DNA of 62,724 nt, filler included, from Hausera hauseri (Eukaryota): NCBI GenBank assembly GCA_046269625.1. It is 11 parts of 11 records of this genome, joined end to end, with 100 filler letters (N's around TTAATTAATTAA, not from the genome) between each part and the next. Parts side by side here need not be neighbours in the genome. Positions count along the whole stretch, not along the records: positions 55,995 to 62,724 come from JBJURY010071439.1; 10 more parts are not named here. One strand, given 5' to 3'. Within the stretch, counting starts at the first letter, position 1. Every line of letters starts with the position of its first letter. Of the stretch, positions 22,686 to 62,724 are shown in pieces. The notes below the pieces were generated by a model. That model saw only the letters and a program-made list of their open reading frames with translations, had not been told where the DNA came from and made no database searches. Made by a program: the position numbers and the translations under genes.

Positions 22686-23065
22686 CTTAGAGTCTCACAC
22701 TCCACGAAGAAAACTCAGAGACATAGGAGGACCGTTCTCTGAGCACCCCAGGGGAATGCCCCCGAGTACGTGTGAATTGTACGAATATTGTTTTATTGTG
22801 TACTAACCACCTATTTTTCTCTATTTTTACTGCAGTTTGATTTAGGCCACATCCAACTATTTACCCAGCTAAAAGTGATAAGTATACTCAGCTCAGTGAC
22901 TGTTAAAATTACTTCTTATAATCCCAGATGAAGTAAAGTATATTAACAAAGTGTTATCTTGTGTTTATTTTGTGTTAAAGGTACCGCTTGCCTGGCTGAC
23001 TGGTGAGGAACTGCTGTGTGTACCATTTCATCCATTGTGTGCAGCTCTAGCATAACATTAGCAAA

Positions 23066-25081: not shown

Positions 25082-25135
25082 ACTCTAAGATTTACTTATG
25101 GTCGACCTCAGATAGGTGAGGTCGAAAGGGGGAAT

Positions 25136-25614
25136 TATTATACATTTATATTAATTTGACTTTCTGCATGGTTTACATTTCATCTGCTTTTGTGCATGAC
25201 ACGATGAGTCATACATCCTGTTTTGTACAAGTTCGGCCCGACCCAGACTTACAGAACCGGAACTGCACAGAGGAACAGCAGCTCGTGCTCTGTGAGTGTG
25301 TGTGAAATGAGGAACTATCCAGCTTACAGTATAAGAGCCACAGCACTTCCTCTTCAGACAGACGGTGCAGCGAGAGAGGCAGACTTTTGATCATTTTTAC
25401 AGGTTGTATTCTCTTCATCGGATGGGCATTCAATGTTTAGATTGCTAAGATAATAACTGCATTGTACTAATCCACTGTTTTGCTTGTGAACCTGTGACTC
25501 CTTCTTTGAAACTTATTCATTCAGATACGTATTAAATATTCTTAAACTTGATGGTGCGTCTGTCGTATTCTGAGTATGTGTCCTTGACTCCTTTTTACAG
25601 GGAAATGATAAACA
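25136..25614 (+). repeat. ERV LTR following PPT GAAAGGGGGAA (25124-25134)
   Basis: PPT directly after env; TATAA near 25330; ATTAAA at 25531; ends ATAAACA. The 5' TG is mutated to TA, and boundaries are approximate. Confidence 0.6.
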
Positions 25615-25915
25615 CGAGTTCGGGCGGACAATAAAAGTGACCGCTACACTTACTAAATTGGTAAATAAGTGAGTGAGGCGGAATCTGGTGAGATTAAAAG
25701 AACCACAGAAGTTAAATAAAATAATTTACTGGCAACCTCAAATATAATAACAAAAATAAATAAATAAAAAATAAATATAATAAAATAATAATAATTTTTC
25801 ACAAACAAGAGTAATACAACAAAGGGGTCAACGCACATTAGTACAAACTATAGGTTCTCTGGTATAAATAAAACTGTGGTGTCCTGACTCGCGTGAATGT
25901 GTGAGTGAATGAAAG

Positions 25916-27421
25916 TTGGCCTGTCTTATATGTTTGTCTCACTACGTGAGTAGTGAGGCATTGTCCCATCATAAGACCAACTGTATGAAAGGAAAAGAGA
26001 AAATAAAAAGAGTTCCTGAGGTGATATTAATATCAACGAAGGTTCTAGGTGATCTAACTCACCCTTGTGGAACGCTCAGGTCCTCAGAACCTCTCGAGAA
26101 TCTCGGGATTAAGTTGATATCTCACTAGTTCCAGAAACAATAAAGATTTTGAGTGCCCTGACTGTGTGAGTGTGTGTAAAAATATGGGTGACAAAGTTGA
26201 GATGCAAGCAAGACAGGAGGAAGTGAAAAAGCAGAAGTCGGTAAAGAAATTAAAACCCTTTAAAGAGCAAATGAAAATAGTAAAAGAGGCCATTTCCTTA
26301 ACGATAGGGAACAAAAACGACAAAAAATTGTTAAACCAGAAACTAACCAGTGTAGAAGAGCATGAAGAACAGGAGAGCGTTATGGAAACATTGTGGGGTG
26401 AGGTGCGTAGGTGCAAAAAGGAGAAAGAGAAGTTGGAGAGAGAAATCAGTGAAGCAAGTGGATTGTTAGTAAAGAGGAAGCACAAAAATAAACTGGCAGG
26501 CCTAGAAACAGACTATAAAGAATGGTTCAACCTGGCAGTGCTCACACAGGGGTTAGCACATCTCTTATCTGACAATAAATCTTTCTCAGATGAGCAGCAG
26601 GCCCCTCATGACCCACCACCATACTCGTGACCAAACATGTGTCCCATCTATGCTGTGGATTCAGGCATTGTTCAAGTCACTTCTGAACCCAGTCCAGGGT
26701 CCACCCACAGTGGGCCTTACGGGCCCCTGAGCAGAGCATTGAGCTCAATGAACACAGACGAACTAGTCACAGTAGATGCCACAGGTTTTTCCAAACAGGG
26801 CTTAACTGCTTTTTCCACGCCAAACCAAAACATACAATTGACACCCCAACAGCATAGACCCAGGGTGGTCAGTTCAGGCCAGCTTTCGCCTGCTCCACCC
26901 ATATTAACTCCCCAGGCTTATTTAACTCCACCACCTTCTTTGGCCGCCTCCCAGGCCTCATGGGTTCCAGATCCATCAGGACCATTAAAGATATCTTCTA
27001 CACTGTATACAACACCATGCCAGTCCTATGCATTGTCTGACACAAACCCTGAGGAAAATGATGTTACTAACTCAATAGTTTATATAATATTAGCTCATTA
27101 TTTACAACAACTTCCAACTGTTGGGGAATACTCCAAAGTTACAACCCCCAAGATATTATCACATGTCGACTCTGTACACATGACAAGTGCCCAGGGTCTT
27201 TTGATAGCGACAAGTCTTAGATATCAGTCCTACAACAATTCCTACATTCGTGATTGTATCCAGTCCAAACGAAACATTAACAAATGAATCTGCAGATGAG
27301 TAGTATAGAACATGAAAAACAACGCTCGTTTCAGGATGAAAATGGCTCGCGTTAAGAAAAAACCTGGAGCAAGGCTGGCGTAAGGTTGCAGCAGGTAAGG
27401 AGAGATAATACAGGCGCAATC
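25916..27421 (+). pseudogene. Gag-like N-terminal region of an ERV, decayed
   Basis: Lies downstream of the LTR; coiled-coil region, DPPPYS late domain, Pro/Ser-rich linker; stops and frameshifts. Confidence 0.55.
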
Positions 27422-27521: not shown

Positions 27522-28660
27522 TCATCCAGCCCGATGATGTCTCCTTCTTCAATTATCTGGAATTTCATAACCTCGTTCATAAATGCCGCATAGGAGCGTT
27601 GTTCCCACCATAGTAAGTTTTCAGTTTTTCTAAGGATGCTCTATATCCTTCTTCTTAAAGATCGAAATTTTCGACCAGTTTTTTCGGCTCCCCATACAAA
27701 CATTTATTTAACTGTAGTTGTTTGTATATATCCGTCATTGAGGTCTTGTGGATACACGTATCAAATGTCTTCCTCCATTTATCGTATTCTTTAACTATTC
27801 CCCGAACTTCGGTAATTCTAATTTTTGTAACTTTGGTAGAATTACCCTTTCCCTTTTTTCCTCTTCTGATCTTCCTCTGACGGCCATCATTTTATTTTCT
27901 CTTGAGGTTCTTTCATAGATGATCGCGTTAATTTTTTCATTCTGATCATCTAGCTTCTCCATGTCGTTTTCTAGTAACGTGATGTTTTCCTTCTTCTTCA
28001 ACTTTCTTGCCGCGGTAGCTAATACACACAGCTCCCCTTGAAGTACGTTGTAGGCTTTATCGTATTTTTGATGATAAACCTCGTACTCTTGATCGCTCAT
28101 GCTCGCATCCATCAACTTCCTCCGAATCGCTGATAGATCGTTAATAAATTTACGCCGTTCCGACAGTCTCTCTTCTAATTCTTCCGTAGTTAACTCGCTC
28201 CCACCTTTTAACCGCAACTGCAAAAAGAATGGTCGAGCCCTTCTGAATATAGTATTCATCAAGTTTTGGCACTCCTCAAGTTGTTTCCCGTTATAGATTA
28301 ACCGTTGTTGTTTTATCGGAATCCCTTCCTTTTCCTCGACTGCCAACTTCAACTCCTTTACTTTGTCCGACGTCTTCACTAAGACCGCAACTATTTTTCC
28401 CGAAATTGTTTCAAAAAATATCATTGTTTTTTCTTCTTCCAACTTTGTTGTTTCCTCTTACACAATTTCCTTGAGGACGAGTTCCCTTCTTTCGTCCTTT
28501 ACAGATGACACCTCTGGTGGTCGTGACTCACCTCTCTCTGGTTTTTCTCCCTGAATTTGCAGTTCTACAATCTTGAATCCGGAGTCATTTTTAGATTCCT
28601 GAGGTCCATTTGAATTTCCGCGGCAGCTCGTTTCAAAGGAGAACCCTTTTACGATTTCGC
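27522..28660 (-). mobile_element. BEL/Pao retrotransposon gag (DUF1759-like) with an internal ubiquitin-like domain, decayed
   Basis: KLELPKFG..EYDKWRKTFDTCIH..MTDIYK..CLYGEPKKLVENF..Y..SLEKLKTYYGG is typical of BEL gag. Confidence 0.82.
28200..28424 (-). other. Ubiquitin/NEDD8-like domain ending in LRLKGG
   Basis: MIFFETISGK..SDKVKELK..VEEKEGIP.KQQRLIYNGKQLE..LRLKGG; an alternate frame gives DEYYIQKGSTI (compensating frameshifts). Confidence 0.92.
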
Positions 28661-31765: not shown

Positions 31766-32649
31766 AGCACATCGAGATGCACCTTGATATATACTGTGCA
31801 GTGCAAAAACACGTGTGCAAGTGTGCAAAAATCAATAATATCAGATTTCCGATATTTCCAATATTGATGATTAGGACATGTGACCGGGTGCATTCGAACA
31901 CAAATATGGTGCAGTATATGAATGTGCAGCTAGAATTTAAATTTATCTATCAGTTTTCGAATAATATCGATCCAAAGTGCAAGTGGGACAGACACCCCAT
32001 AGGTTTTTAGGTCCTAAGGATGCATAATTCGGTATTATAATTAGCGGGGACAAATAGGAAGTTGAATATGGCGATCTCGAATCTCATGTCAGATATTTGA
32101 AATTCGAATATCTTTTGGCTCTAATATCGAAGTTTGAACTTTTCGAAAAATCTAACAGCGGCAATCGATTCCTCATATATGAAAACCCTTTTCAATAAAA
32201 ACTATTTCATGAAAATCTACTATATAGATATAAAATCAATATTTCGAATTAGGCAAAATCTGCATTTAAAACTCAGTGAAGCTAAAATCGACAAATCTAT
32301 AAGCGGTCACGGATAGGAAGTCATAAATGTTGAACTGGAATATGGCATCAGTTATTCGAATTCGAGCTTCCAAGACGAATACTTAGCTATTCGAACTCGA
32401 ATATTTGGTCAAGCATGCATTATTCGACGAATCTAATGACGTCATTCGAATCCTCATGGTTGAAAACCTTAAATTTGGTGCCACCATGTATTTAATTTAA
32501 TTGATGTATTAAAACAAAAGTGCATTAAAACCGATCAATAAGCGGGGCAGTGCATGGTGATATAGATATATTTTTCATTATTACCAAAATCACTTCAAGG
32601 AATGGCGAGGTTTTTAATTGTGTTCCTTAAATAATTAATTGATTTTCAG

Positions 32650-39947: not shown

Positions 39948-40346
39948 ATAATTATTACAGCGTAGGATACTGATAAACAGTACTCTGTATTCATATACCT
40001 ATACTTGGCTACGTAATTCTTCAAACTATGAAGCTACATCTGGAAGACATATCCACCATAATGGGAACTTATCATTTAGCATATGTTGTACTTCTGGAGG
40101 TTTCTCTGGCTCAGTGGAATCTGATTGTAGGGGGTTCAAAACCACACAGTATTCCACTCATGATGGACTGGTCATCTGTTGTGAGTTTTAGTAGGGCCAT
40201 CGAAATGTTGGCAGCTCTTGAGAATGCCCTGACGCACCACAAGGTGTATGTGTCAATTTTATTTTTATTTTATCTGATATGTTGTACTTTTAAAGAAAAT
40301 GACAACTATTTTTGACCCTGTACAACTGTCATAATCACATTCTTAC

Positions 40347-40529
40347 CTTGCTGAGACCTGAATTCAGCTTCTCCCATTGTATGAGGCTGCATGAGCTCTC
40401 CTACTGGTGCTGAGATGGTTACAGAGAATGTCTTCTGCTCACTAGCCAACTGGAAAGCAGCAGGCTGAGTTGTATCATTAAAGTTGATCCCCATAAGGAC
40501 TGAAGTGCTGGCCCCAACACCAAGAGTAG
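40347..40529 (-). CDS. Exon of AP-3 complex beta subunit (C-terminal ear region)
   Basis: AG/GT-bounded exon MGINFNDTTQPAAFQL..FSVTISAPVGELMQP.TM.E.EF..QQG resembles AP3B MGIDF.DSTQ.A.FQL..PPVGELL.P..M.E..F.KEQG. Confidence 0.78.
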
Positions 40530-41021
40530 CTGTAAATTAAAATGTATACAGTACATCAGGGCTATTTAACAAACTCAGGGGACCACAGTTACTCAAAGCC
40601 AACATATCATTAGAAGAAAAATACAGTAAAAACTGACTCTGATACAGTAGTTTTATCAGATCCATTTTTTTATTCAGAAAGAGTTCTGTGCTAATTAATC
40701 TTATAATTCTCCGTGTGATCGGCAGCTAATTAAATCACCGATACATCAAAGCTCTTTGAGCCAGTTCCCAGAACCTGGCTCGCCTTTGCAGAGGCCTGAA
40801 CCTTGCAGAGCTGACAAATCTATCCACATTTGAGCTCATTAAATATTATGAACTCAATCTCTCCCTCTCTCCCAGTTCTCTCTTTACATCCCTATCTGTA
40901 TTTGTCTTTCTATCCGCCATCCTACAATATCCTCCCCTTCTTCAAAGCAGATGGAAAATAAAGTTGTATTCTCATCAATTGAACCAGTCTCAGTGGAAAT
41001 AATTTTTTCACTTCAACAATT

Positions 41022-41039
41022 TGGCGTTGTTGGCAGGAT
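41022..41039 (+). promoter_or_regulatory. Primer binding site, tRNA-Ser-like
   Basis: TGGCGTTGTTGGCAGGAT 3 nt after the LTR end CAACA; 2 mismatches to TGGCGTAGTCGGCAGGAT. Confidence 0.8.
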
Positions 41040-41590
41040 CCATCGCTGGTTCGTCCACTCGTTGGAGTCAGACCGGGGCTGATCACCCAAAAACCTGTCA
41101 CGGTATTTCCTCAACCTCCACCAGGCCAGTCTGTGAGTCGAGGACGGCTACTGCTCCATTGAGAGGACCGGCCGTGACTGAATCCGATACCGAAGAGACT
41201 GAGAGAAACAACTAACAAGGTAATTAAACCTTTCTACTAAATTGTAAGTCCTACAAAAAGGACTGAGTGTAAAAGCCCTATATTCGAGAAAAAAATAAAA
41301 ATAAAAAAAAGGGAAGGGCTGAGTTTAAATTGTAGGCCTTTGGCTAAAGGCTGAGTGTAGGTCCATATATTAGAGAAAAATAAATAAGAAGGACTGAGTT
41401 TAAATTGTAGGTTTTCGGCGTAAAACCGAGGGTAGGTCCTGTTGGAACTGAGTTATGACGTCATAATTGAAGTGTAGGTTTCAACATTAAAAAAGGACTG
41501 AGGTGGAGAAAATTTTTATTTCATAAAAATCTTCTCCAGCCCACCATAAAACACCACCATATATTTGGAATAAAATTACTTTGTTCTAAA

Positions 41591-43645
41591 ATGGGTGGTT
41601 ACCTTAGGAAACACGGAGATGACGATTATATACCTTTTGGGCCCATTATAGACCTTATGAGAGAAAAACACGGAGAGACATGCATTTCTTTTTTGCCACA
41701 ATGGCATAATAAATTAGGTTTTCCTAAAAATGGCAGTCTAGACCCGGCTGACATTCAAAATCTGGAGGAAAAACTAATGAGCCAAAAGCAGAAAATGTTA
41801 AAACATAACAAAATATCTCGCGACCAGCTGGTCACTGAGTGCACATGAGGATGCTTTTAGACCCTGCTTTTAGACTGTGGAAAAATATGTCTTTAATTCA
41901 GCAATCCAAGGTCCACACTATGATTCAGATAATAGGGAAAACAGATTCAAAAATACAAGCCTTAAAAGAAAAATTACCTGATGAAACTAATCCGTCTGTT
42001 TTTTCTTTTCCATCCCCCACACCCTCTCATGCTCGAGCCCCATCCAGGCCCTCGGCCCCTCCAGCGGCTCCTAGTCTGTACCCCTCTCTCACGGGACTAA
42101 GGCACGATCCTCCTCCACCCTACGAATCTCCCACCCCATCCAAACCATCTCAGCCAACACCTAAGCCACGAGGAGGGCCACTCAAAATCCTTTGGCAGTG
42201 TGAGGGAGATGATGATTACCAGAACTGTGGGGATACATCTGACCGCCCTCTTGGTCAGGTTCTGGCTGTTCCAGCTCTCCCACAACAGCAACCAGATCCG
42301 CCTGTTAATGAGCAGCCTGCCCCTTCCACCCCAGGGTGATATAGCTGCAGCTTCAGGCTCCACAGTTCACTCAGATCCACCATCTTCCAACCTCAGAAGC
42401 AAAAAGGTAAAAACCCATGAAGAGTATGAAACTGAACTAAAAAACAAAGAAGCAGAACTAATTGCCCTTCAGAAAGAAGTAGCTAAAGTAGAGGCAAAGA
42501 GAAAAAGAAAACAAAAATCCAAACAAGACCAAGAAGAAAGGCTAAAGCAAGAAGAGGCTGTTGCCTGCCAGCTCCTGAAAGACCTTCTTCTGACCAAGAT
42601 CCCACCCCCATCAGACACTGCCCAAACTCCCCAGCTCCCCGTCGACACCCCACCTGAGGACACCCTCAGTTGTCCCATGGTTGAGGTAGGGGGCCCGCAG
42701 GGTGCACAACTAGTCCTCCGCACCTGGACCCGTATCGAACTGGTAGACATGGCGAAATCCTTCCTACCTGTAGTAGAACAGGGGGGCACAGAAATTGCAA
42801 AAGCCCTGGACACAATGTGCCACACCATGCGCCCCAGCACTGATGAACTGAGGGTTATCTTTGGGTCTGTTTACGGGGTGGGGTTCCTGTCAACTTTGGG
42901 CAACGTTTTTGGGGACGACAATCTTGTCCTTAGAAACATTGATCTAACTCACGCCTCAAATGATGCTTACAAAACAGTTCTCACCGCCATTAAAACCGCT
43001 CTAACTGACAAAATAAAAAAATGCCCCAAAATGAATTTAGTCAAAGTCTGTAAATACCAACTTGGTGATGTCCCCGCTGAATACTATGCCAGACTGAAGA
43101 AACTCTTCGACGTCCATGCTGGTCTGACTGAGCCTAGAAATGAATGGCTAACAGATGCTGACCCTGATCCCTATGAAAGTCTCCTAGCCCAATGTTTCAT
43201 GGATGGTCTGCCACCAACTCTTCAAGCTGCTGTAAAACTCACCTACACCGGCTGGGATGACGGCCTTCGCATGAAAAAGCTCCTTAAACACACAAAACAC
43301 GCTGTGGCCACCCAATCCCTCGCCAAAGAAGAAGCTGAAACAAAAAAGAGCTGCCTCCAGGAAGAAGCCCAGCTGACCCTGGTCCAAGCAGCTTCCACTT
43401 TCTATCAAAATGACCAGGGCAGGAGCCAAGGCCAAGATGACGCCTGTTTTATCTGTGGAGCTGATGACCACTGGTCCAGAAACTGTCCTGATCGCCGTCC
43501 CAGTCGCGGCCGAAGAGGCCGAGGGGGACCACCCAGAGGCCGTAGCTACAACAATAACAACCAGGGCTACAGAGGACAAAAGGGAGGATCCTTTCGTGGG
43601 GGTAAGAGGGGAGGTGTGCCCCCTTTTAGAGGTCAATCTTCATGA
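41591..43645 (+). pseudogene. gag: ERV gag, two frameshifts (about 41840 and 42330)
   Basis: MG myristoylation start, PSAP/LYPSL/PPPY late domains, CFICGADDHWSRNC Zn knuckle, RG-rich tail. Confidence 0.9.
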
Positions 43646-46600
43646 CTACAGCCGCTGGACGGACTCCAAGGACTCCAGCCCCTGATGAGTATCGAAATAC
43701 ACCCACCTAACACATGTTACTTACAATATTCATCCTCTGCTCATTTAAAGCTCCCTATGCTAACTGTACAAGTTCAAAACACACCCATTGATTTTCTTGT
43801 AGACTCAGGAGCCACTCAATCTCTCATTAAACATTCTTGTTTACCTGGAGCACCCCTCTGTGGTCGTACAGTCCACTCCACAGGTGCTTCAGGGGAAACT
43901 GTTCCTGAGCCAGTAACTTCACCACTCTCTTTAACAGACCATTTTTAAAGAAAATCAGACCACACCCCCCAGATGAGTGGCAGTTTGTCCAAGATCTCAG
44001 AGCTGTTAATGCTGCTGTACAACCCCGTGCTCCCATTGTCCCCAATCCTTATACTATCTTAACTCAAATACCTTCTTCTAGCACTTGGTTTACAGTTATT
44101 GATCTAGCTAATGCTTTTTTCAGCATCCCTATGCACCCTGACAGCCAGTTCTGGTTTGCTTTCGAGTTTAAAGGCAAGTCTTATACATTCACTCGCCTGT
44201 GTCAGGGATACTGTGAATCTCCTACCATTTTTCACCAGGCTTTGAATGATAACCTTGCTTCTTTTTTCCTGCCTGCAGGATCTGCTCTGCTCCAATATGT
44301 TGATGATCTCCTCCTTGCTGCACCCTCCAAGGATGAGTGCATCACCCAGTTTTTCCGTCTTCTCTCCTTCCTAGCTGAAAATGGTCATAAAGCATCAAAA
44401 TAATAAATAATAATAATAAATAAGCTCCAATTTGTCCAACCAACTGTTACATTTCTGGGTCACGTCATCTCCAAAGAGGGAAGGGCCATAGCTCAACCTC
44501 GTGTTGACGCTATTGTTTCACTGCCTCTTCCCAAAACTAAAAAACAACTTATGTCTTTCCTAGGTCTGTGTGGGTATTGTAGGCATTTCATTCCATGTTA
44601 TGCTGAGTTAGAAACCCCATTAAGAGAAGTATGTCATGACAAGGGGTTACAAATGAGCTCACATGTCAACTGGACTGCAGCTGCCATAAAAGCCTTCGAA
44701 GCGCTCAAAATTCAATTACAAAAAGCACCCACTCTTGGTATTCCAGATCCAACTCGTCCTTTTGTGCAGACGGTGGATGAGAAGTGCGGTTGCATGACTT
44801 CTGTTTTGCTCCAAAAACATGGCGACAGATTGAGACCAGTTGCTTATTTTAGTTCTAAATTGGATCCTGTTGCAGCTGGCCTGCCCCACTGCCTTAGAGC
44901 CGTGGCGGCCGCGGATAAGGCTGTAACAGCATCCCGAGACATTGTGGGTTATTCTGATCTGACCCTCCTCGTTCCCCACGCTGTCACCCTCATCCTCAAC
45001 GAACAGAAAACCGCTCATTTATCTACTGCTCGTTGGTTGAGGTATCATGCTAGCTTATTAGACATGCCTAACATCACCATCCAGCGCTGTAATGTTCTTA
45101 ACCCTGCCTCTTTGCTCCCAACACCTGAGGACGGCCAACCTCATGACTGTGTTGCTGAACTTGACGTCATCTGCTCACCTAGACCTGATCTACAACAACA
45201 TCCCCTTGTCTCTCCAGACTGGGAACTCTTTGTAGATGGCTCCGCCTCTCGTGACCCCCACACTGGCTCCGCCCTGTGTGGCTATGCTGTTGTGACAGCT
45301 TCTGAGGTCATTGAAGCCCACCCCCTGTCCTCTTGTTCCGCCCAAGCCTGTGAACTTATCGCCCTGACTCAGGCCTGCATTTTGTCTTCTGAAAAATCTG
45401 TAAATATTTACACTGACTCTCGTTATGCTTTTGGTGTTGTTCATGATTTTGGTGCCTTATGGAAACACAGACGTTTCCTTCGGTCAGATGGCCCATTTTA
45501 AATCACCTTCTAGTCTGACCTCTTAGAGGCCATTATGCTCCCGTCCCAAATTGCTGTTATAAAATGTTCTGCCCACACATCTTCTATAGATCCTGTTTCT
45601 TTAGGAAATGCATTTGCTGACTCTACAGCTAAATCTGCCGCCCGACTGACCACTGACCTACTCTTACCACTACTACCCTCTGACCCACCTCTCTCATTAT
45701 CTGATTACAGAAGTTCTCCACTCCTGCTGAACGCTCCTCCTGGAAATCCTGTGGCTCCTCCTTCACTGACTCCATCTGGATTGGCCCTAATGGTAATCCA
45801 TAAACAATTTTTTTCCCAGCTTTCGCCGTTTTGACACACGGTCCTGACCATGTGTCAAAGGGAGGAATGCTGAGGGTCATTGATAAACACTGGTTCACCA
45901 TAAATCTTTCAAAAACAGCAAAATCCTTCTGTGACTCCTGCTTAACATGTGCTACACACAACATAAGCAGAGGTCAGAAATTAACAACACAAGGAGCACA
46001 TAAGCCCACCTGTGTTCCTTTCCAACACCTAATGATTGATTTTATAGAAATGACCCCAGTGGAAAATAAAAAGTATTGTCTAGTTATGGTTGACATGCCA
46101 AAGCAGTTGCTAAATGTCTGCTCACAGATGTAATCAGCAGATGGGGTATTCCCCGCCGAATCAGCAGTGACAATGGACCCCACTTTGCAAATCAGATAAT
46201 GACTGAAGTCTCCCAACTACTAGACATTGATCTAGCAAAACACTGTGCCTACCACCCTCAGAGTGGTGGTGCAGTAGAGCGTGAAAATGGAACATTAAAA
46301 CTGAAACTAAACAAAATTTGTTCCCACACAGGTCTCAACTGGGTCCAAGCCCTGCCTATTGCTCTCATGTCCATGAGAATGAGGGAAAGAGCCAAACATA
46401 ACCTTTCACCTTTTGAAATCCTTTTTGCAGGACCGCCCAACCTTGGTCTGGGCCCACCAAAAGACCCTCACAGCTGTCTCACCACATGTGATGACAAAAT
46501 GCTCCAATACTGCATTGAACTAACAAAATCTTTGACTTCTCTCAGGAAAAATGTTCAAGGAGGACAACCTGGACCAGCACAAGAATCGTTGCATTCTATA

Positions 46601-46760
46601 CAGCCTGGAGATTTTGTTATGCTTAAAAATTTCAGGAGAAAGCGGTGGAACAGTCCAAGGTCCCTTCCAGGTCCACCCACACCGCTGTGAAGGTCGCTGA
46701 ATGAGCCACTTGGGTCCACGCCTCCCACTGCAAAAAAGTTCGGGACCAGCCCACCATCAT
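43646..46760 (+). pseudogene. pol: ERV pro-pol (protease, RT, RNase H, integrase), defective
   Basis: FLVDSGA; VQDLRAVN, YVDD; FVDGS, IYTDSRYAF; H..H..C..C, SDNGPHF, HPQSGGAVEREN. Deletion at about 43945; (TAA)n insert at about 44400. Confidence 0.93.
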
Positions 46761-47561
46761 CCGGCCCGGGAGGACCAGACAAACCACCAGCATCCTAGAA
46801 CCCCTAGGCTGCCACCTACAGCTCACTCAGTGTCTCAGGACAGCTGAGGCTGCATTTCCTCAAACAAGATCAGAGAAGACAACTCCACATAATGCCTGGT
46901 GCCAACACCAGGACCCCCAGATGGGTACAACACTCCATACTATATTACATTTTCACATTAATAGCCATATTGATATTTCTGTTTTCATGGTATTCACACC
47001 CCTCTCAGAAACCCCTTTTCAGCCCTAACACAACCTCAGATGACCCCTATCTGAGGACGAAGATGCCTTTGTTCTCACACGCCCCAAAACCCTCAGCTCA
47101 AAGTTGTAAAGGCCATTCATTATTTTTATCCTTATCTTAACAAGGGTTGTTAGCTATTTCTGTATCTTTTCATTATGATGTTTTTGAGTGTCTTTTCTTT
47201 TATGATTTAGACAGCCCTGTCTGTCTCTTGCAGATGTTTTTTTATTTTATTTTATTTTTATTATTATTTTGTTGTTTGATTCTTCCCTTATTTGAAGAAT
47301 TTTTGGTGTCTGTCTATTTTTTCGTGTTTTTAACTTACATTTGTTCTTTTTGTCTGCAGTTCATTTCTTGCCCCTCCGACCATGCATTTTGCCACTGCTG
47401 GAGTAGGCCCAGGGTGATGTGTCTGTTTTCCTCCACTACAATTCAAACACAGCCTACAGATGGAGGTTTTTCCAGAACATATGGTCATCTTATGGACGGC
47501 GGCATTTGTGATATTTTATTTTCTATTTTTAATTGTTCCATTAGGAACAAAAGGGAGGAAT

Positions 47562-48028
47562 TGTGAAATAAAATATGTATTAAATAAGACTCAATGCATT
47601 TACATTAGATTAAGCAGTTTCATTAGTTATTTGTGTCATCAGATGCTGTTGCACACAGTGTAAGTTTGTTTTACAAGGTTGCAGCAAAACATGAGTTTTT
47701 GTAGATAGGCTTAACAAAACGCCCTTGATGGGAGTCTGGGAAGAGGCGACAAAGTTATCCAAGGAGCATAACGAAACAACTGTGGTATTTGATAGAAATT
47801 GTTTCCCAGAGAAACTAAAATGTGCAACGTCCACGCAACCATGAAAGAATGTAGACGCAACCCTGTGTGTCTGTGAAGAACTGTATAAAAGATGTAACTG
47901 TGTACTGCTTACTCAGAGCTCACCCGGACTGCCCGGGTGCGTCTCTCCATCTGCGCAGATGAAAAATAAAAACTTGTTTCTCTTCAATTTTAAACAGTCT
48001 CAGTGGAAATAATTTTTTCACCTCAACA
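47562..48028 (+). repeat. ERV 3' LTR
   Basis: PPT AAAAGGGAGGAA then TG..CA; TATAAAA at 47884, AATAAA at about 47965; the last ~75 nt match 40947-41018. Confidence 0.88.
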
Positions 48029-48794
48029 ATTGTTATTAAAGACGAGGATGTTGATCCAGTTAGTCTGCTTCAGGAGGTCCAACCTGATCTGGTTTCAGCT
48101 CAGAACATTTATGAAAACAGTTTGTGTTTGTGAGAAGAATGTGTCCAGATGTTTGCAGCAGCAGAGGACACATTCATGTCAGCTCCCACTGAAAACAACA
48201 TGTTGCAGATGAAATCACAACAAGAGCTGCTGCAGAGAAACACCAGCTCCTCCTGACCCGGGAAGGAGAAGCAGGAGAAGAAACTGGAGGAAATCAATGA
48301 AATAAATAAAATAATTAGATGTTTAGATCAGGAGAAGAGAAAAGAGGAGGAGGAGGAAGATGAAAAGTCTGACAGACAGATGAAGAAGAGTTCTTACAGT
48401 TTGTTCAAGTTTAAAAAGAACTCTTGTCATAAAAAATAATGTTTTGTTTCCATCAGCTGCCTCACTAAGCTAACATGTCACATGACTGAATTAATTTAAC
48501 TTCAGCTTCAAAATAAGAAAAACAAATCAGCCGATGAACGTCTGCTGATCACTTCCTGTTTCAGTTCAGTGGTTCATAAGATATTTTGCTAACACACAGG
48601 AAAACCCTCATCTTTCACTTTAAACAGCTGCTGCCTCTCATTTAGAGCAAACCACACAAAATGATTTGAAACATTATTTTATCTGAGTTTTGATTTTCCA
48701 GGTGAAAATGTAAAATCTGTTGAAATCTGAGCCGTCTTCTGGCAGCCATGTTTTTATTTTCTGTTTGTTCGCTGCGTTTACAGCTGAGCCCAAT

Positions 48795-49122: not shown

Positions 49123-49938
49123 TTATATTTCTCCTCCCTGAGCGGCATCCTCGAAGGAGCCTATTGCGTCAGAAGAGGTGGCGCCAAATGTTCTTGGTTG
49201 CCTTAATCGATTCGTTCTTTCTCGCAAATCAGTTTGGGAATCTGGTTGATCTTTACTTCTTATGGGGCTCGTCTCTAGGTCATAACTATGGTAGGGCTTA
49301 ATGCGAAAAACTCGGGTGTAACTCCCGTCGGAGTAATACTTTAATTCCGTTGCCTCTGCTCGGCACACCGGACATGTTGTTTTTCCATTGTCTAGTGTCC
49401 ACTTGTCCAAACAGTCTCGACGATACTTATGACGGCAAATTTTGTTGTCCAGTACCACATAGCCTTGGTTTAAGTTGGCATGGCACACAGGGCATTCATT
49501 ATCCTCCTTATCCCAATCATCTCTATCTAAATCAACCTGGATTGTCAATTCAATGGGATCGAATATAAGGCCATCCTCGTCGTTATAAAGGTATCCATGA
49601 ATTACCTTCTGCTTAGGATTAATGGAGTTCTTCCGTGGGTCACAGCTTACTTGTATTAGGGTCCAATCTGCCACGAGGTCTCGGTCTAAGTCTAGAATCC
49701 TTCCTTCTATTTGATATCTTTGATATTGCTTCTTTAGTAATATCCGGATTTGCTTATCTACTGGGACTATTATTTTTCCTGTCCTTTTTGAGCGGAAGAC
49801 TGAGGTAAGGTAGTTTCCTAACTTAGGGTTTTCCCAAACATATGTATTTTCGAAAACTTCTCTCGCTGGGGCAACTTTTATGTAAAACATGGCTTCTTTG
49901 ACCATCTTCTTACTACAATATTCTGTAGTTATAAGCAT
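49123..49938 (-). CDS. RING-finger protein ORF inside an LTR element (RING at 49360-49494)
   Basis: CPVC-x15-CRH-x5-CLDKW-x8-CPVCR, a RING-H2-like pattern with the fifth ligand replaced by R. Confidence 0.8.
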   Translation of the reverse strand: MLITTEYCSKKMVKEAMFYIKVAPAREVFENTYVWENPKLGNYLTSVFRSKRTGKIIVPVDKQIRILLKKQYQRYQIEGRILDLDRDLVADWTLIQVSCDPRKNSINPKQKVIHGYLYNDEDGLIFDPIELTIQVDLDRDDWDKEDNECPVCHANLNQGYVVLDNKICRHKYRRDCLDKWTLDNGKTTCPVCRAEATELKYYSDGSYTRVFRIKPYHSYDLETSPIRSKDQPDSQTDLRERTNRLRQPRTFGATSSDAIGSFEDAAQGGEI

Positions 49939-49960
49939 TCTTGGTGAGTCCTGAGCCGTT

Positions 49961-52067
49961 TTACATTGGACGATTTTTTTTAATTTTCTTCCCTAAAAGG
50001 ACATTAACTTCGATTATCATGGGTTCAATAACTTTCTTTTCTACAGATTTTACCTTCTGGGAGGTACTTGGTTCAGTTTGTTGGTTTTCTTCCTTTGGCT
50101 TCTTGCTTTTTCCCTCTTTCTTAAATAAGTAATTATAAATGGATAGCGTTTTCTTGGGTTGGGACTTTTCTTCTAATTTCTGTCTCTTTATTATTTTTTC
50201 CGGCCTCAACTCTTCTTTGTGTTTCTCTGGTGACTTTGATGTTCTATCTGGTGTTTCATTTTCTTTTTTGATCGTCTGTAATTCCGTTTTATTTTATTCT
50301 TGTCCTTCCATAGGTTTTTGTACTGTGATAATAAGGCTATGCTTGCCAGTTGGCTGGACGGTTCTGATCGAAGAGTAGGGTTTGATATTCTTTCTATATT
50401 TAATATATATTTCTTCGGGCTTTAGGGAACTGCGTAAATTGTATGTGGGGTTTCTAGGAGCCCATTCGTGTTCCCACTTTAACGATTTACACATTTCTTG
50501 CAAATATTTGGAGCGTTGGCTAGCCGTTAGAAGTCTTGGAATTCTACTCGAGTCATTGCTCATTGCATCGATCATTAACTTGAAGAAGGCTTCTGGAGCG
50601 GTTGGTCAATTTCTTCCTTGTACGGTTTTCTCCATTCGTTCTTGGATTATTGGGTGGGTGGCCATTTCCCTAAGTCCGGCAATATTTGCATAGGATATTT
50701 CTAGTAACTCAATTGATCGTTGCACATTATATCCTGTCAGCATACAACCGTAAAGACAATGATCCAACTCGGACTTGCTTAATGCTTTTCCTCTTATGAG
50801 CTGCTCTCTTCTTAATTGGTGTCTCATTATATGCTCGACCATAGCGAATTCTGTCAGTCTTTCATTTATTATTCCTGCTATGGAAGGTAACAAGTCTATC
50901 CACTTCCTTATTTGTTTAGATATTGCTGGTTTAGCGTAGATTATTTCGTTTAATGTCTCAGTAGCTTCTTTTAGTTCGTGATCTGGCCCTCGTACAAATT
51001 CTATGATATGTTTCACGTAGTTGAATTCTTCCTTATACTCATCTAATTCAAGAAGACAAGCACGTATTATTCTCTGTGCTTCTGCCTTTTCAGGATGGAC
51101 TACACCGATTTTTAAGTCGTTAATTTCGATTCGTATTTTGTTTTCTCTTTCAATGCGTATTTTCAAATCCGGGTATTGTCGAGGATTATGCTTTATCAGG
51201 CTACACATTGCTATTAAAGGGGGAATATCGATTTGGTCTATACCCAATATCTCTAGGTCGGCATTAGTCAGTTCATATACCGGCTTGTTATGAAGATAAG
51301 AAATTATCGCCTCTTCGATCTCATACATCAATCTTTCTAAATTACGTCTTACGAGTTTCAGTTTTGGGTTGTCTTTTAGTGCGTTTAATAGTCCTTGCGC
51401 TTGATTCATTTGATCGAGGAATGGCTCATTCTATTCCACCATATTTTCGTAAAATCGATCGCACTCCTTGTCCACAGTTCTAATTTATTTTTCCAACTCT
51501 CTATCAAGTCTTGTGGCGTTTCTTGAAGTTCGTAAGGTGTTTTTTCTTTCTGTTTGTGAGGGCCGGGTTGGAGCTTTTTATATAGTTTTTCTATGAATTG
51601 TTGTTCTTTTCCGGAGATATCCAACTGTTTGCTCATCTTCTAAAGTTTTTGCAGGCTCTCCTGTAGCCTTTCTGGGTCATTCAGTGCGTCAATTATTTTG
51701 GTTAGTTCGTTTGCATTTTTCCAAGATTTTCTAATCCCCCCAAACTTAACAGGTTTTTCCTCTTCTGATTCCTCTTCGCTAGGTGGTAATGGACATACTT
51801 CATTAATTTCATCAATATTTGAAATATTTGTTGTTTCCGGAACGCCTTGGGTTAGAACGGGAGTATTTAACTCCGTTTCATCTCTTAAAGTGATGATAAA
51901 GTCGTCATCTTTTTCTAAATTCTTTTAATAGGGGATCTTGAACGAGTTCCCGACCTTCTCCTAAATGAAGGGCTTCTACCCCTATTTTTGGTTATCTTGA
52001 GTATTAGTGGGCCAATGAATTCGCTCGCAACCTCGTCTGTTATTTTATCCTCATTTCGCGACGCGGC
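49961..52067 (-). pseudogene. Run of co-oriented ORFs of unknown function between gag and the RING ORF
   Basis: ORFs 51406-51636, 50606-51409, 50294-50575 and 49961-50209 abut or overlap, like a frameshifted long ORF; no PR/RT/IN motifs. Confidence 0.55.
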
Positions 52068-55994: not shown

Positions 55995-56463
55995 CTTTCC
56001 ATTGTACGTGTACTGCCCGAGAGATAATTGTTATCGGCCTTTCTATTGCGCTACAGCCAGCCCGAGACCCTATACGATCGGTCCCGCTGACTTAAACTAT
56101 GTAAATTGTCGATTATAAATCTGACTGAAATTTAATGTAGCCGAATGGCTCAAATTGAAATAAAATGAAATAATTATATTTAAATAATAATAATAATAAT
56201 ATTAATAATAATATTTTAATAATATTAATAATAATGATAATATTTATATATAAATTATAAAATTTTTGAATTTTTTTTTTTTTTTTTAAGAGCCGAAGGT
56301 CATCCTTCGAGCCAGTCACTTTTCCGGGGGAAGCGGGCTCTAGATCCACATGCGGAGCTTGAAGCCAGCACCGGAATAGGATTTTAATTAATTAACTTAG
56401 ATGTTTTTTCGCTTATTAATTTAAATGTATTTTTATTTATTTATTTATTTTATTTATTTTTAG

Positions 56464-56910
56464 ATGATAAATTTTGAGCAGTGCATTAGGATATGGAAAA
56501 TATTTAATTCCTTGCAACGGGATGTGTTGCATAGAAAATTAATATGGTGTCGTGGACAGCAGGAACGTTTCGAGGATTTGGGTAGGCGCATGGAACAAAG
56601 AAGGGATGAAATTTGTGTTTTGTATTGTGGATCGCGGGATACCGATTTTTTAGATTTGTATAATGAGATTCGTGGTGCTATAGCGGAGTTAAGGCAGTGT
56701 CTTGCGGAATTGTTGGATCGGATGGAGTCTTATCGTCAAGCCTTGGAATATTATTGTTTATATGTAGATGGGGAAACCTATTACTACGAAAACACGGATG
56801 ATATTTTAGAGTATTGGAATGGGCTTAGCACGGAGGAACAGGTGAAGTTGTTACGAGAGCATGAGCGACGTATAATAGACTTGCAGCATGATTTAGTATG
56901 GAATATGTAA
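56464..56910 (+). CDS. 148-aa acidic, probably helical protein of unknown function; likely the last exon of a spliced gene
   Basis: Preceded by a T-rich tract and TAG acceptor; TATAAA at 56114; AATAAA at 56920. Confidence 0.65.
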   Translation: MINFEQCIRIWKIFNSLQRDVLHRKLIWCRGQQERFEDLGRRMEQRRDEICVLYCGSRDTDFLDLYNEIRGAIAELRQCLAELLDRMESYRQALEYYCLYVDGETYYYENTDDILEYWNGLSTEEQVKLLREHERRIIDLQHDLVWNM

Positions 56911-56935
56911 ATGTTTTATAATAAATGTTTATGTG

Positions 56936-57002
56936 TGTTATTTTTTAATGTGGCCGACGCCGGTCTTAAGCCCGGGTGAAAAACACAGAAAGGAAAATAA
57001 CA
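56936..57002 (+). ncRNA. Twister ribozyme (P1 type)
   Basis: P1 TGTTATTTT/AAAATAACA; U^AA cleavage site (56946/56947); P2 TGTG/CACA; GC/GC pseudoknot; P4 CCGG/CCGG with loop TCTTAAGC; TCTT/AAGG pseudoknot; conserved GA. Same layout as the rice twister UAA-P2-GCC..CCGGUCCCAAGCCCGG..GAGGG. Confidence 0.88.
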
Positions 57003-57008
57003 TATATT

Positions 57009-58241
57009 TTATTTGAATAAAACATTATCACGAATTGATGTTAGTATTCGTGTTATTTCTGGGTCATCGTAATTGATGCTCATTGAAAATTTGATCGGAC
57101 GTATTGTGTTGATTAGTAATCGTCGTACGAAGAATGAGAGGTATTGACGAAGGGATTATAACACTTTTGTAAAGGCCTCTTATTGATCTATTATCATTCT
57201 GGTGATTACACTGAATGATACTGAGGAACGTATCTGGCGGTGTGTCGTGAAATCCTATGTCATCTAGGACGACGAGGTCGTATTCACCTGTCCAGTCCAC
57301 TGGACAGTCGTGTAGTGAGTGGAGAATTAATGGGTTGTTGCCGTGTGATAAGGCAAACGAGGTTTTGCCGATATTTGAGGCAACAAATATGATCGCTGAG
57401 TTTATACCTCTGTCTGGTTGAAATGTAATTTTGTCAATTAGAAATTCTAGATCTCTTCTGGGAACGTATCTTTCCCGAAATTTATTCCTGACGTAGGTAC
57501 ATAAGAGCTTGTTCCTGGTGACAAATTCGGCCCTGTCACCCTCTTTCATTATTTCTAATGCCTCATTGGCTGATTTGGCATCATCGAACATCCGGTATAC
57601 CGCCTTTCTGCTGGTGTTGTCCCGGAGTACGTTAAAGGGCGGTACACCGAATTGAACGACAGTTGCGCCCTCGAAGGTGGGCTTATGATGGTATAGGTAG
57701 ACCTGTTAAATTAATAATAATATTAATAATATAAATTTGTATACTTTTTGTATGTCTTCTCTAAACGGTAAGATGAAAGCTCCCAATATCTTCCACATCG
57801 TTCTCATTCGATATGGTTGTGGTGTATGAATGAGAACGTGTAGATGCTTGTTACCTCCTTTGGATAATTCCTCTTGGAGGCGGATGAACCATTTGTGTTT
57901 ATAGTGCATTGGGAGGTAGACTGATTCAGCAAAGTATCTTCCTGTGAAATCTTCATCAATTTTGTGTACAAGCATGAAATGTCTGAATGTTGCTGATCTG
58001 GGAGGCATAGCAAGTTTATTAATGTCTTCAGTAAATTTAGATTGTAATGAATCAAGGATATCTTTGTCAAATGCGTTGTCCGGGAACAACGGGATATCCT
58101 TTTCAGTAAATACATGAAAATTTCTGCGATATTTCCTTTATTTCAAAAATTAAAATTTAAAAAAATATCAAAATGTACCTTTCATTATTATCTACATGCT
58201 CATTAGGTTGTACCATTTGTCTTTCTACATAAACATTGTCC

Positions 58242-58243
<2 letters not shown>
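57009..58243 (-). CDS. rep: CRESS-type Rep (HUH endonuclease + SF3 helicase), three exons: 58243-58179, 58135-57745, 57702-end; 3' deletion/frameshift
   Basis: FMLV (motif I), QEE..G.KHLHVLI (II), YHHK (III), VASNIGKT (Walker A, first G lost), VVLDDIG (Walker B), FVRRL arginine finger in a shifted frame ending at 57009; GT-AG introns. Confidence 0.85.
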
Positions 58244-58272
<29 letters not shown>

Positions 58273-58603
58273 TAAATATATTTTTAAGTTTTTGGCTCAA
58301 AAAGTAGTAAAAGAGTTTTCAATATGAATTGAGCCGGCTCAAATTGTATATATATTTGTTGAAAACAAAATGAGCCGGCTAGAAAATGCATTATGTGTGT
58401 GTAAAATTATCTGCAGTTGGTTACAAAAATTAATCAATAATGTTAAGTAGTTTCCGCGGCTGTAATTAGCCTGCGGTTCTCGGCTATTACATGCAAATGA
58501 CTGACAGCCACTTAAGTGGCCACTTGAGTTTGTGTGTAGCTACCGCCGATAATTAGACTGCGTTTATCGGGCAGCTAATGCACCGGACTTTCCATTACTA
58601 ATG

Positions 58604-58844
58604 GATTTATGCACGAGTTTTCTGGAGGCAAATGATTGTTTGGTTTGATAAGGTGCAAAAAATCTGTCATGGCTTCAATGATGTGATGTGTTTTCAGTAG
58701 AGACCGCATAAGCGTATTGTAATTGTCGGTTATAGATTTATTAGGCATATAGATTGAGTTAACGAAATAATCATTATTTATAACTGACAACCGCGTATGT
58801 GTGTCTGGTATGTGTTGGGCTTGTCTAATTAAATTAGCACTCAT
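58604..58844 (-). pseudogene. 5' part of an unknown ORF, truncated next to the CRESS unit; paralog at 62285-62724
   Basis: 58604-58716 is identical to 62611-62724. Confidence 0.65.
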
Positions 58845-59278
58845 ATCAGAACAAATAAGAAAAAGAACAAAATTATATTCAATATATACAACATGTACAA
58901 CACGAGAAAATGAGCATGCAAATGAGCACCAATCACAACGTCACGTGGTGATCAATGCCGAAATCAACATTCAGGCTATTAACTCCATTACCCCCAGGGG
59001 CACTATTCATATATTCTGCATCATTTCCCGTATTTAAGAAATCGACCTGTGGAGCAACATAGCACCTTTCACTGCACATGTGGAAAGGGTTCAAAATTTC
59101 GTTATATGTCGGACGATAATCAACCGGAACAAAAGTTGGCGTATTTAAAACACTCAATTCGATGGTCATCAATAGAAGAAATCTGATCCGGAATATAAAT
59201 ACTCAAACCCTGCGGTAAAACAGTGCTATGAGCAACATTAGGTACACTGGATTGAGACTGAATCTAATTATAATATAA

Positions 59279-60396
59279 TTATAAAAATAAAGAAATAATT
59301 AAAACCTGATTATAATTTTTTGCTAATTGCCTGAAGTCCACCTTGTTCTGACTTAGGAAATCATCTCTACTATTTCCGGTTCTATACAACATAAAATCAC
59401 CTAGGTCGTACAACAGGCACCTCTTTAAACAAGCCTCTTTGACTGAGGTCCATACGTCTGGACCATTTTGTTTACACAAAGAAGTAAATCCATTCGATCA
59501 TTCATTTCTTGTACATCTGTCAATCCGTACAACAGAAGAACGTCACGGAAATCTTCGATTTCGTACTTTTCTAACATTTTATCAATATTCTTCGTCCAAA
59601 AGATTATGCCGTCGGCTAGCAATATTCTTCTTTCCATATCCCATCTTTTGTTATTTTTATATTTCTAACGACAAAGGAACGGATTCTTTTGGCTAAATAG
59701 ATCCATATAAATTATATGTCAAAGAATAAAAAGTATATTAATTTGGTCTAACATTTGTATGTTCTCTAAATAATTTGGCACCCATGACATATTTCAGTGA
59801 TACTATCACACAATCCTCAGTAAATATGTTTAATTAAAACATGATTTTCATTGCCTTAATAGATAGTTGCAATGAATCCGATGAAATATTTTATTTGTTA
59901 AAAAAACGCTTAATTTGTATTATTTGGAATTCTACTCAATAGGTCTTGCCTCATCACATAAAATTGACGACATATGAATTGCATCAGTTTGTGCGGCCTT
60001 CCAAAGTTTCTGACATGGTTTGAATATACATTTTCATATGTATTTCATGGGATTGAATTACATCATGCGGTAATTTTGGAACCTTCATGAATGCTTCTTT
60101 TCTTTTCTGTTGGTGAATTACTCGGTGCAACAGATTATTTTTAACCATTTTGTTTACACAAAGAAGTAAATCCATTCGATCATTCATTTCTTGTACATCT
60201 GTCAATCCGTACAACAGAAGNNNNNNNNNNNNNNNNNNNNNNNNNNNNNNNNNNNNNNNNNNNNNNNNNNNNNNNNNNNNNNNNNNNNNNNNNNNNNNNN
60301 NNNNNNNNNNNNNNNNNNNNTGTATTTCATGGGATTGAATTACATCATGCGGTAATTTTGGAACCTTCATGAATGCTTCTTTTCTTTTCTGTTGGT
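59279..60396 (-). pseudogene. Duplicated fragments of an unknown ORF around a scaffold gap
   Basis: LLYGLTDVQEMNDRMDLLLCVNKMV occurs at about 59464-59538 and 60145-60220; 60040-60113 repeats at 60321-60395. Confidence 0.55.
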
Positions 60397-61010
60397 GGCA
60401 TCACAACGGACTTGTACAAACCCCTAATGCTCCTATTATCATTAGGATGGTTGCACTGAATAATAGAAAGGAATAAGTCAGGACGACGTCACTGAATCCG
60501 ACATCATCAAACACTAACAAATCGAATTCGCCACTCCATTCAGGAGTGTCGTGAAGCGAATGGAGAACAAGAGGGTTAGATCCGTGACTAATAGCATAGC
60601 ATGTCGTCCCTATATTTGAACTACCAAAGATAAGAGCGCTATTTACACCGCGATTAATATCAAAAGCTATAGGAGGTAACGTAAACACAAAATTATTAGC
60701 CAAACACACCTTAGGTCGAAATTCCGCACTTACATAAGACGTTAACATCTTATGCCGAGTTACAAATTCAGCGCGATCGCCATCTTTCATTATTTGCATG
60801 GCGTCGGCTACAGTTGGGGCCTCATCAAACATCCTATACAAGGCCTTCCTACTAGTGTTATCCTTCGTTATATCTATCGGAGGGACCCCAAACTCAATAA
60901 CAAAAGAATTTAAACTAACTTGTTTGCAATGATACTTATAAACGGCAAAAACATCATGCCGAAAAGGTATTACGTATTGTAAATCAAAAACAGCTTTAAA
61001 TTGGGACAAT
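60397..61010 (-). pseudogene. rep: Second, divergent Rep copy, truncated at both ends and intronless
   Basis: FGVPP..DNTSRKA.YRMFD.A..DRAEFVTR.K, GSSNIGTT, LLVFDDVG, then frameshifted FLSIIQCNH.NDNRSIRGLYKSV. Confidence 0.85.
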
Positions 61011-61135
61011 CTCAAATGCAAACAAAAAACATTAAGGAATTTTCGTCGTAAAGGAAAATTTCAAACTGTCACAAGATATTTATATAAGAAATAGGCAGAT
61101 ATGTGAAATTAATGTTAATTAATAATACGAAAGAT

Positions 61136-61957
61136 AAATGAAATTAAATGAATATAACATCTTTACCACTATTTTCATGGCTACTTCCAGCAACTGGACT
61201 AATCTAAAATTATAGCGGTTATTTAAATAATAACAATGTGAAAAAATATAGTAATGAAATTAAATTAATATTACGTCTCACTTTTCATGGCCACTTCCAG
61301 CAACTGGATTAATCTAAAATTGTAGCGGTTATTTAAATAACAATAATATTAAAAACAGAAATGAAATTAAATGAATATAACCTCAACAACTATTTTTGTG
61401 GCCATTTCCAGCAACTGGACTAATATAAAATTATAGTGATTATTTAAATAACAATAATATGAAGAGAAATGAAATTAAATGAATATAACCTCTACCATTA
61501 TATTCATAGCCATTTCCAGCCACTGGACTTATCTAAAATTATAGTCGTTATATGAATAATAGTAATATGAAAAAAGATAGAAATGAAATTAAATGAATAT
61601 TACTTCGACCACTATTTTTATGGCTATTTCCAGCAATTGGACTAATCTAAAATTAGTGGTTATTTAAATAACAATATGAAAAATGATAGAAATGAAATTA
61701 AGTTAATATAACCTCTCTACCGCCATTTTCATGGCTACTTGCAGCGACTGTACTATCTGAATTTAGTGTTTATTTAAATAAAAATAATATGAAGTAAGAT
61801 AGAAATGAAATTAAATGATTATTACCCCTCTACCACTATTTTCATGGCCGCTTCCAGCAACTGGATTAATCTAAAATTAGTGGTTATTTAAATATCAATA
61901 ATATGAAAAAAGATAGAAATGAAATTAAATGAATATTACCTCTCTACCACTATTTTC
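61136..61957. repeat. Imperfect tandem array, about 110-120 bp unit, 7 copies plus a partial
   Basis: AAATGAAATTAAATGAATA..CATGGC.ACTTCCAGCAACTGGA.TAATCTAAAAT repeated. Confidence 0.92.
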
Positions 61958-62284: not shown

Positions 62285-62724
62285 TTAATACCAATCATTA
62301 AGGTAACCTTTTATATCTGATGGTTTGAATACTTCAATGCACAGAGGACATGGATTATTGTGTAATTTCGATTTACGGGGGCAATAAGTGTCGGATACAT
62401 TCATCAGAGCTTTGTATAAATCATTGCATATCTGACTTTCGGAATGTAGAACAATAGTAGACAATCCAATATCTGTTGTTGTTACAATTCCATTAAGTTG
62501 CATCCTTACAGGCATGCAATCTTTAATTTGACATTCATCTGCTAACCTGGCATAAGTATTTAACTGATCGAAATTCAGATGAGATAAATCCTTTGTTAAC
62601 AGTGTCACGTGATTTATGCACGAGTTTTCTGGAGGCAAATGATTGTTTGGTTTGATAAGGTGCAAAAAATCTGTCATGGCTTCAATGATGTGATGTGTTT
62701 TCAGTAGAGACCGCATAAGCGTAT
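62285..62724 (-). CDS. Unknown protein, 5'-incomplete, with a C..CPLC motif
   Basis: 143+ aa frame; its N-terminal part can be inferred from the copy at 58604-58844. Confidence 0.5.
   Translation of the reverse strand, partial: TLMRSLLKTHHIIEAMTDFLHLIKPNNHLPPENSCINHVTLLTKDLSHLNFDQLNTYARLADECQIKDCMPVRMQLNGIVTTTDIGLSTIVLHSESQICNDLYKALMNVSDTYCPRKSKLHNNPCPLCIEVFKPSDIKGYLNDWY

Follow-up and report, generated by a model that had tools for sequence, protein, structure and literature searches.

The window, the whole 62,724-nt stretch of DNA that we analysed, consists of eleven contigs with N spacers between them, and the Rep genes described here lie on the last of these (contig 11, 55995-62724), which has a 100-N gap of its own at 60221-60320. 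Positions 55995-58605 form a 2.6-kb unit with two facing genes and related ends, and one of these genes, Rep1, encodes on the minus strand (ATG at 58243) an HUH nuclease and SF3 helicase, the domains that mark CRESS-type Reps (PMC5923481). The features of contig 11 are the following:

55995-56055, no strand: left unit end, at the contig start, with arms complementary to the right end and a shared 9-nt direct repeat
56427-56463, plus strand: candidate leader intron (weak), 37 nt, AT-rich, GT-AG, ending directly before the ORF X ATG
56464-56910, plus strand: ORF X, 148 aa, facing Rep1, with predicted long helices
56920-56925, plus strand: poly(A)-like signal AATAAA, 3' of ORF X and 5' of the ribozyme
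56942-56996, plus strand: predicted type-P1 twister (Rfam RF03160), where the 3' ends of ORF X and Rep1 face each other
57008-57013, minus strand: poly(A)-like signal AATAAA, 3' of Rep1
57064-57702, minus strand: Rep1 exon 3, 639 nt to the stop, with motif III, central domain and SF3 helicase
57703-57744, minus strand: predicted intron 2, 42 nt, GT-AG, phase 0, with an in-frame TAA, just before motif III
57745-58135, minus strand: Rep1 exon 2, 391 nt, with 42 non-homologous codons, then an internal Met and HUH motifs I and II
58136-58178, minus strand: predicted intron 1, 43 nt, GT-AG, AAG acceptor, GC 0.12
58179-58243, minus strand: predicted Rep1 exon 1, 65 nt, ATG at 58243, without homology to other Reps
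58535-58605, no strand: right unit end, hairpin-rich, related to the left end and adjoining a 114-nt repeat
59264-59305, minus strand: third GT-AG intron candidate, 42 nt, GC 0.07, two in-frame stops, junction direct repeat
60398-61012, minus strand: Rep2, without intron 2 and motifs I-II, with a frameshift near 60485, cut before motif C
61136-61957, no strand: tandem array, 7.4 copies with a period of about 114 nt, in the place expected for the 5' part of Rep2

The two unit ends share two inverted 8-mers, an in-register inverted 6-mer and a direct 9-mer; among 6022 control stretches, two inverted 8-mers occurred in none and a direct 9-mer in 60, in a comparison that was picked after inspection of the sequence and in which the left end is the contig start. 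Hairpins and related ends are present, and the canonical nonanucleotide NANTATTAC was found in neither end of the unit. Nonanucleotide matches in the AT-rich tandem array were treated as chance; the units of this array are about 80% identical, and several carry nonanucleotide-like words and a small hairpin. Neither a flanking host gene nor a target-site duplication was seen around the unit. The 114-nt repeat (58604-58717) recurs at the end of contig 11 (62611-62724), and two 77-nt repeats lie on either side of the 60221-60320 gap; both kinds of repeat presumably represent loops of the assembly graph. ORFs at 58575-58940 and 62285-62722 (minus strand) read as one unassigned ORF that continues through the 114-nt repeat into the contig end, and the arrangement suggests that a loop or tandem unit of roughly 4 kb contains Rep2 and that the Rep1 unit interrupts it.

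The structure model of ORF X (pLDDT 68) consists of long helices and is not a jelly-roll capsid, and comparison of ORF X with Pfam, PHROG, the Atlas and known folds yielded nothing usable (fold search: 0 matches at E<=0.001). Since ORF X is helical in the model and lacks a usable family match, no capsid gene was found in the unit; the remaining frames of contig 11 are unassigned. The candidate leader intron has an alternative form of 61 nt that starts at 56403. The same leader layout occurs on another contig of the window, which bears a protein-primed-type DNA polymerase (Polinton-like) and on which a 40-nt AT-rich GT-AG stretch (32610-32649, plus strand) ends immediately 5' of an ATG. Further upstream of ORF X, a GC-rich island between two AT-rich tracts (56285-56380, plus strand) is structured (z -2.7, DNA fold) and has no Rfam match. 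A similar GGCTCA-type motif lies upstream of ORF X (56138-56155, plus strand) and of Rep1 (58320-58382), the Rep-side stretch folding strongly (z -5.2), and this motif is possibly a shared promoter or iteron.

The twister between the two genes matches RF03160 over the full-length model with 40.2 bits (E 2.5e-6), below the Rfam gathering score of 67.2, in a model that scores no pseudoknots. A search of the other 56 kb of the window gave nothing at E<=0.1. The element has the helices P1, P2 and P4, the conserved core, a U-A step and a T1 pseudoknot that is paired, and we take the T1 strands to be those of the known twister structure; plain folding of the region is unremarkable (z -0.72). Among the core matches listed (IMG/VR loci plus the window; 116 distinct), 40 are P1-type, and T1 pairing is kept in 39 of these, as CCC/GGG in 37, CTC/GAG in one and CTT/AAG in the window, with T1 unpaired in the remaining one. 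The window's CTT/AAG reads as a double compensation, and it is very likely that the predicted twister is active in self-cleavage. Its position just past the ORF X poly(A) signal suggests a role as a terminator between the facing genes, towards which we lean slightly. Twister-like cores occurred at 129 loci at least, with full flanks covering 80 of them, and among the matches listed a single locus, L001, carried a Rep; L001 is without twister architecture. This 2701-nt mastrevirus-like genome has an exact 17-nt match to the twister core (1152-1168, minus strand), the sole one among the IMG/VR matches listed, in the short region between its facing genes and so at the same layout position as the window twister; the match may have arisen by chance or reflect a hairpin motif common to both.

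In Rep1, the CRESS Rep profile begins at the internal Met of exon 2, an exon that scored E 3.6e-5 with the homolog profile and E 0.007, under the cut-off, with Pfam Gemini_AL1. With 14 inserted codons set aside, Rep1 aligns at HUH motifs I, II and III. In exon 3 the helicase has Walker B, departs from the norm in Walker A and motif C, and is short at the C-terminus: Walker A differs at residues kept in 89 of 89 homologs and motif C at residues kept in 87 of 89, the frame stops before the arginine finger, and the protein ends 24 residues past the motif C strand where 88 of 88 homologs have at least 33. With two deviant helicase motifs and an early end, this Rep1 copy may be dead or decaying. 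A frame beyond motif C that resembles a Rep C-terminus, and would have required a third Rep1 intron, had a profile score of -2.7 and was therefore rejected as unsupported. A single-sequence fold of Rep1 (pLDDT 34) was unusable.

A phmmer search of 1.84 billion representatives returned 89 proteins at E<=0.001, 23-37% identical to Rep1, and none at 1e-10. Viral_Rep, Gemini_AL1 or Gemini_AL1_M was matched by 22 of the 27 homologs scanned, and none of the 20 homolog names looked up was informative. In the Atlas, the clusters next to exon 3 bear the labels Cressdnaviricota and Eukaryota/Rotifera (0.96, with few members behind the taxa). Close relatives were absent from word-indexed protein searches, IMG/VR, JGI metagenomes and plasmids, and Rep matches from PDB sequences and PHROGs. 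By these comparisons, Rep1 and Rep2 are an uncatalogued lineage of CRESS-type Reps. The planarian element PEVE was dropped as a lead, its description in PMC3198968 being that of a relative of parvovirus-like elements.

An earlier note on this DNA had claimed a 42-nt GT-AG intron immediately ahead of motif III of Rep1, containing an in-frame stop, and homology bears this out, the segment being a 14-codon insertion relative to Rep2 and to the homologs. The site is spanned by 81 of the 89 homologs, and 13 of the 14 alignment columns of the insert are empty in every other row; because the homologs come from predicted ORFs, this outgroup is skewed to unbroken frames, and Reps split by a stop-bearing intron would be missed. 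Rep1 has a motif II-III spacing of 51 with the insert and of 37 without it, the homologs a median of 39 (range 36-60 in the 75 with both residues; 72 of 75 below 51). Intron 2 begins GTATAC, ends CAG and has a GC content of 0.10 versus 0.37 and 0.43 in the flanking exons, and no 42-nt window of the Rep1 exons falls below 0.21. A GT..HAG segment of exactly 42 nt within 9 nt on either side arose in 0.6% of 100,000 shuffles. With GT-AG ends, a frame-compatible length and absence from homologs, the insert has the characters of a U2 spliceosomal intron, and we regard its splicing, as predicted from sequence, as highly probable.

The same note had placed a 43- or 55-nt intron from 58178, and here the ends and the frame stood up to inspection, the call being less certain because intron 1 lies upstream of the region homologous to other Reps, where ends and frame are its support. 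Removal of either the 43-nt form or the 55-nt form (acceptor at 58124) leaves the reading frame of the ATG at 58243 intact; the former fits the size of the other introns and the latter has the commoner CAG end. As the homolog profile starts at the internal Met of exon 2 (residue 39 of the exon 2 frame), intron 1 would interrupt either a leader or an N-terminal extension. The stretch of 42 codons upstream of this Met is stop-free in 3.6% of shuffles and exon 1 in 11.7%, and a coding extension is modestly favoured; the internal Met could nevertheless be the real start of Rep1. Intron 1 is probably spliced.

Contig 11 contains three AT-rich GT-AG candidates of 42-43 nt in all, the third (59305-59264) sitting between two open frames of an unrelated neighbour, not of a Rep. 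We compared junctions in five introns, namely these three and two in the LTA4H gene of contig 1: the start of intron 2 has nearly the same bases as the exon that follows it, a short imperfect junction repeat (p about 0.015), and the third candidate ends like its preceding exon (p about 0.002), with no junction repeat in intron 1 or in either LTA4H intron. Junction repeats flank 43% of gained introns in Daphnia, and in Drosophila they are reported as no commoner around gained than around conserved introns (PMC3443670).

The LTA4H gene is real (Pfam PF09127, E 1e-11) and has two GT-AG introns of 45 and 43 nt. The earlier note had matched the Rep introns to these, and the match held for size (42-43 versus 43/45 nt) and failed for composition, the Rep introns having 10-12% GC, far more AT-rich than their exons, and the LTA4H introns 37-38%, like theirs (exon GC 0.36). 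Moreover, CpG o/e is 0.37 and 0.51 in two contigs of the window (depleted, as in vertebrate DNA) and near 1.0 in contig 11 and the LTA4H contig, so the window holds DNA of more than one organism, and contig 11 is unlike vertebrate DNA in this respect. With contigs mixed and intron GC differing, the LTA4H organism is no more than a possible host of the Rep. Gyrodactylus is likewise unsupported as host by size, since the intron modes of Gyrodactylus salaris are about 32 and 58 nt (PMC4040987) against 42-45 nt in the window. Elsewhere in the window, two CpG-depleted contigs (39948-48794 and 22686-27421) have retrovirus-like gag/pol and env-like frames, labels from ORF reading with no family scan, and are likely of vertebrate origin; a RING-finger ORF (49123-49992) shares its contig with retrotransposon gag frames, and another contig has a ubiquitin-like ORF (27795-28457, minus strand).

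Rep2 reads straight through the site of intron 2, as had been claimed. Rep1 read through, with X at the stop, aligns to Rep2 by BLASTP (E 3e-63) with a single 14-residue gap at intron 2, the junction is precise in the DNA, and the first three codons of intron 2 encode the same residues that Rep2 carries at that site. Rep2 is 5'-truncated and fused to other sequence, motif III being its sole HUH motif, and its truncation before motif C coincides with a 77-nt assembly repeat. In the main block the two copies have the same residue at 83 of 153 codons (54%), 53 of these 83 through different codons; in a second block, where the DNA is 65% identical, 23 of 25 residues are kept. Because residues are kept by different codons and synonymous sites are saturated (dS not computable), Rep1 and Rep2, on this evidence, split long ago under protein-level constraint. 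They group together in a quick tree of 83 rows, with 8 homologs under 245 aa left out (SH-aLRT 100, stem length 1.79), and the insert is in Rep1 alone, in agreement with the proposal of intron presence and absence within one Rep lineage. The accompanying proposal of long residence in a host goes beyond what the sequence shows: Rep introns occur in free viruses and so need only nuclear transcription, and the copies diverged under protein-level constraint. Because no close relative was found, the choice between gain and loss rests on two copies; gain of intron 2 on the Rep1 branch is the simpler reading and a likely one.

We consider it reasonably probable that 55995-58605 is a unit-length copy of a small, nuclear CRESS-type rolling-circle replicon of a eukaryote that gained host-sized introns while functional and that is now probably integrated and decaying. 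Host Pol II would transcribe ORF X and Rep1 outward from the origin-like unit ends, and the host spliceosome would remove the 42-43-nt AT-rich introns from the Rep1 transcript. Intron 2 would have been gained after the Rep1/Rep2 split, with the element still a functional replicon, by a small insertion or duplication that left the short junction repeat. The twister would cut the ORF X transcript just past the poly(A) signal and thereby limit read-through into Rep1. Both copies at hand have probably integrated and begun to decay, which is clear for Rep2 and possible for Rep1. Only tentatively do we extend this to a capsid-less or multi-component invertebrate replicon lineage, possibly of a parasitic flatworm, with repeated intron gain and a twister terminator.

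An old integrated Rep that became a host gene or a transposon family, its introns gained or lost in the host genome, is unlikely, even though both Reps share one scaffold with a satellite-like array and rearrangements, the Rep introns have the size of the LTA4H introns, the nearest Atlas clusters include Eukaryota/Rotifera Reps (again at 0.96, with taxa resting on few members) and endogenous Rep-derived transposons are known (PMC3198968): the virus-like two-gene layout, the related ends and the ribozyme are kept, Rep intron composition is unlike that of LTA4H, free viruses have Rep introns too, and neither a host flanking gene nor a target-site duplication was seen. We give still less credence to an ancestral intron 2 that Rep2 lost through reverse-transcribed spliced mRNA (as a retrocopy or by cDNA recombination). 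The precise junction and the truncation and fusion of Rep2 agree with such a loss; on the other hand, the divergence of Rep2 from Rep1 is too great for a copy, a 42-nt intron candidate is retained in a neighbouring frame of the same strand, and the repeat at the junctions of intron 2 points to a recent insertion. Least credible is the reading of the 42 nt as AT-rich sequence that slippage or repair inserted, thereby inactivating a dead copy, and that has GT-AG ends by chance, for, although the segment is low-complexity AT sequence, the helicase motifs of Rep1 are deviant and the GT could come from a duplicated codon, its exact in-frame length with a pyrimidine-AG acceptor is rare in shuffles (the 0.6% above), contig 11 has two further candidates that resemble it in size and style, and the frames on either side of the 42 nt are long and open.

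If the reading as an intron-gaining replicon is true, the locus records a dated intron gain in a fast-evolving nuclear ssDNA-type replicon, outside the classic geminivirus site, and intron size could mark the host of orphan CRESS elements. It would also explain why ORF-based surveys miss such intron-split Reps, and the twister, a ribozyme whose role is mostly unknown, would acquire a function open to test, namely transcript termination between the facing genes of a DNA replicon.

The genomovirus Rep intron lies between the central domain and the helicase. The mastrevirus intron has this position as well, and intron 2 lies before motif III: the Rep frames of L001 cover profile positions 9-172 and 191-296, and since intron 2 falls at about 95-109 and this break at 172/191, the two sites differ, as the earlier note had maintained. 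Like mastreviruses and other geminiviruses, for which a spliced Rep is described in PMC13696870, the unit would express an HUH and SF3 Rep from a predicted spliced transcript, and it shares with mastreviruses and L001 a size of 2.6-2.8 kb and two facing genes that end in a short intergenic region. It differs from mastreviruses in its 42-43-nt introns, in having no recognised capsid or movement gene and no canonical nonanucleotide at the unit ends, and in its 23-37% identity to any Rep found.

Rep introns have also been predicted for cruciviruses, in 36 genomes (PMC7468197), and for CRESS genomes associated with arthropods (PMC6186406); there, as in Rep1, in-frame Rep stops are resolved by predicted splicing, the introns are taken as a sign of a eukaryotic host and some genomes have incomplete helicase motifs. 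By contrast, the second exon of cruciviruses mostly holds the helicase, and a capsid gene is present (PMC7468197, PMC6186406); passages of these two papers contained neither intron presence and absence within a lineage nor a ribozyme. Endogenous Reps and Rep-derived transposons are known in eukaryotes (PMC3198968, Liu et al. 2011) and a CRESS virus has been described from a flatworm (PMC10269781); such endogenous copies, too, are often broken and found in animal assemblies including those of flatworms, and they are integrated, as the unit in the window probably is. The word intron is absent from the main text of both PMC3198968 and PMC10269781, and in the literature on Rep introns and endogenous Reps, represented mostly by titles and the starts of abstracts, no title names two micro-introns or intron presence and absence in one Rep lineage.

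Twisters have two pseudoknots, a U-A cleavage step and a little-known function, and in eukaryotes the type-P1 form is known from the 5' end of Schistosoma non-LTR retrotransposons (PMC8501958, PMC6765202). The predicted twister in the window differs from these in its place, which is past a poly(A) signal and between two genes of a Rep element that face each other. Spliced Reps are already known, and it is the site of intron 2 and the ribozyme that look unusual here.
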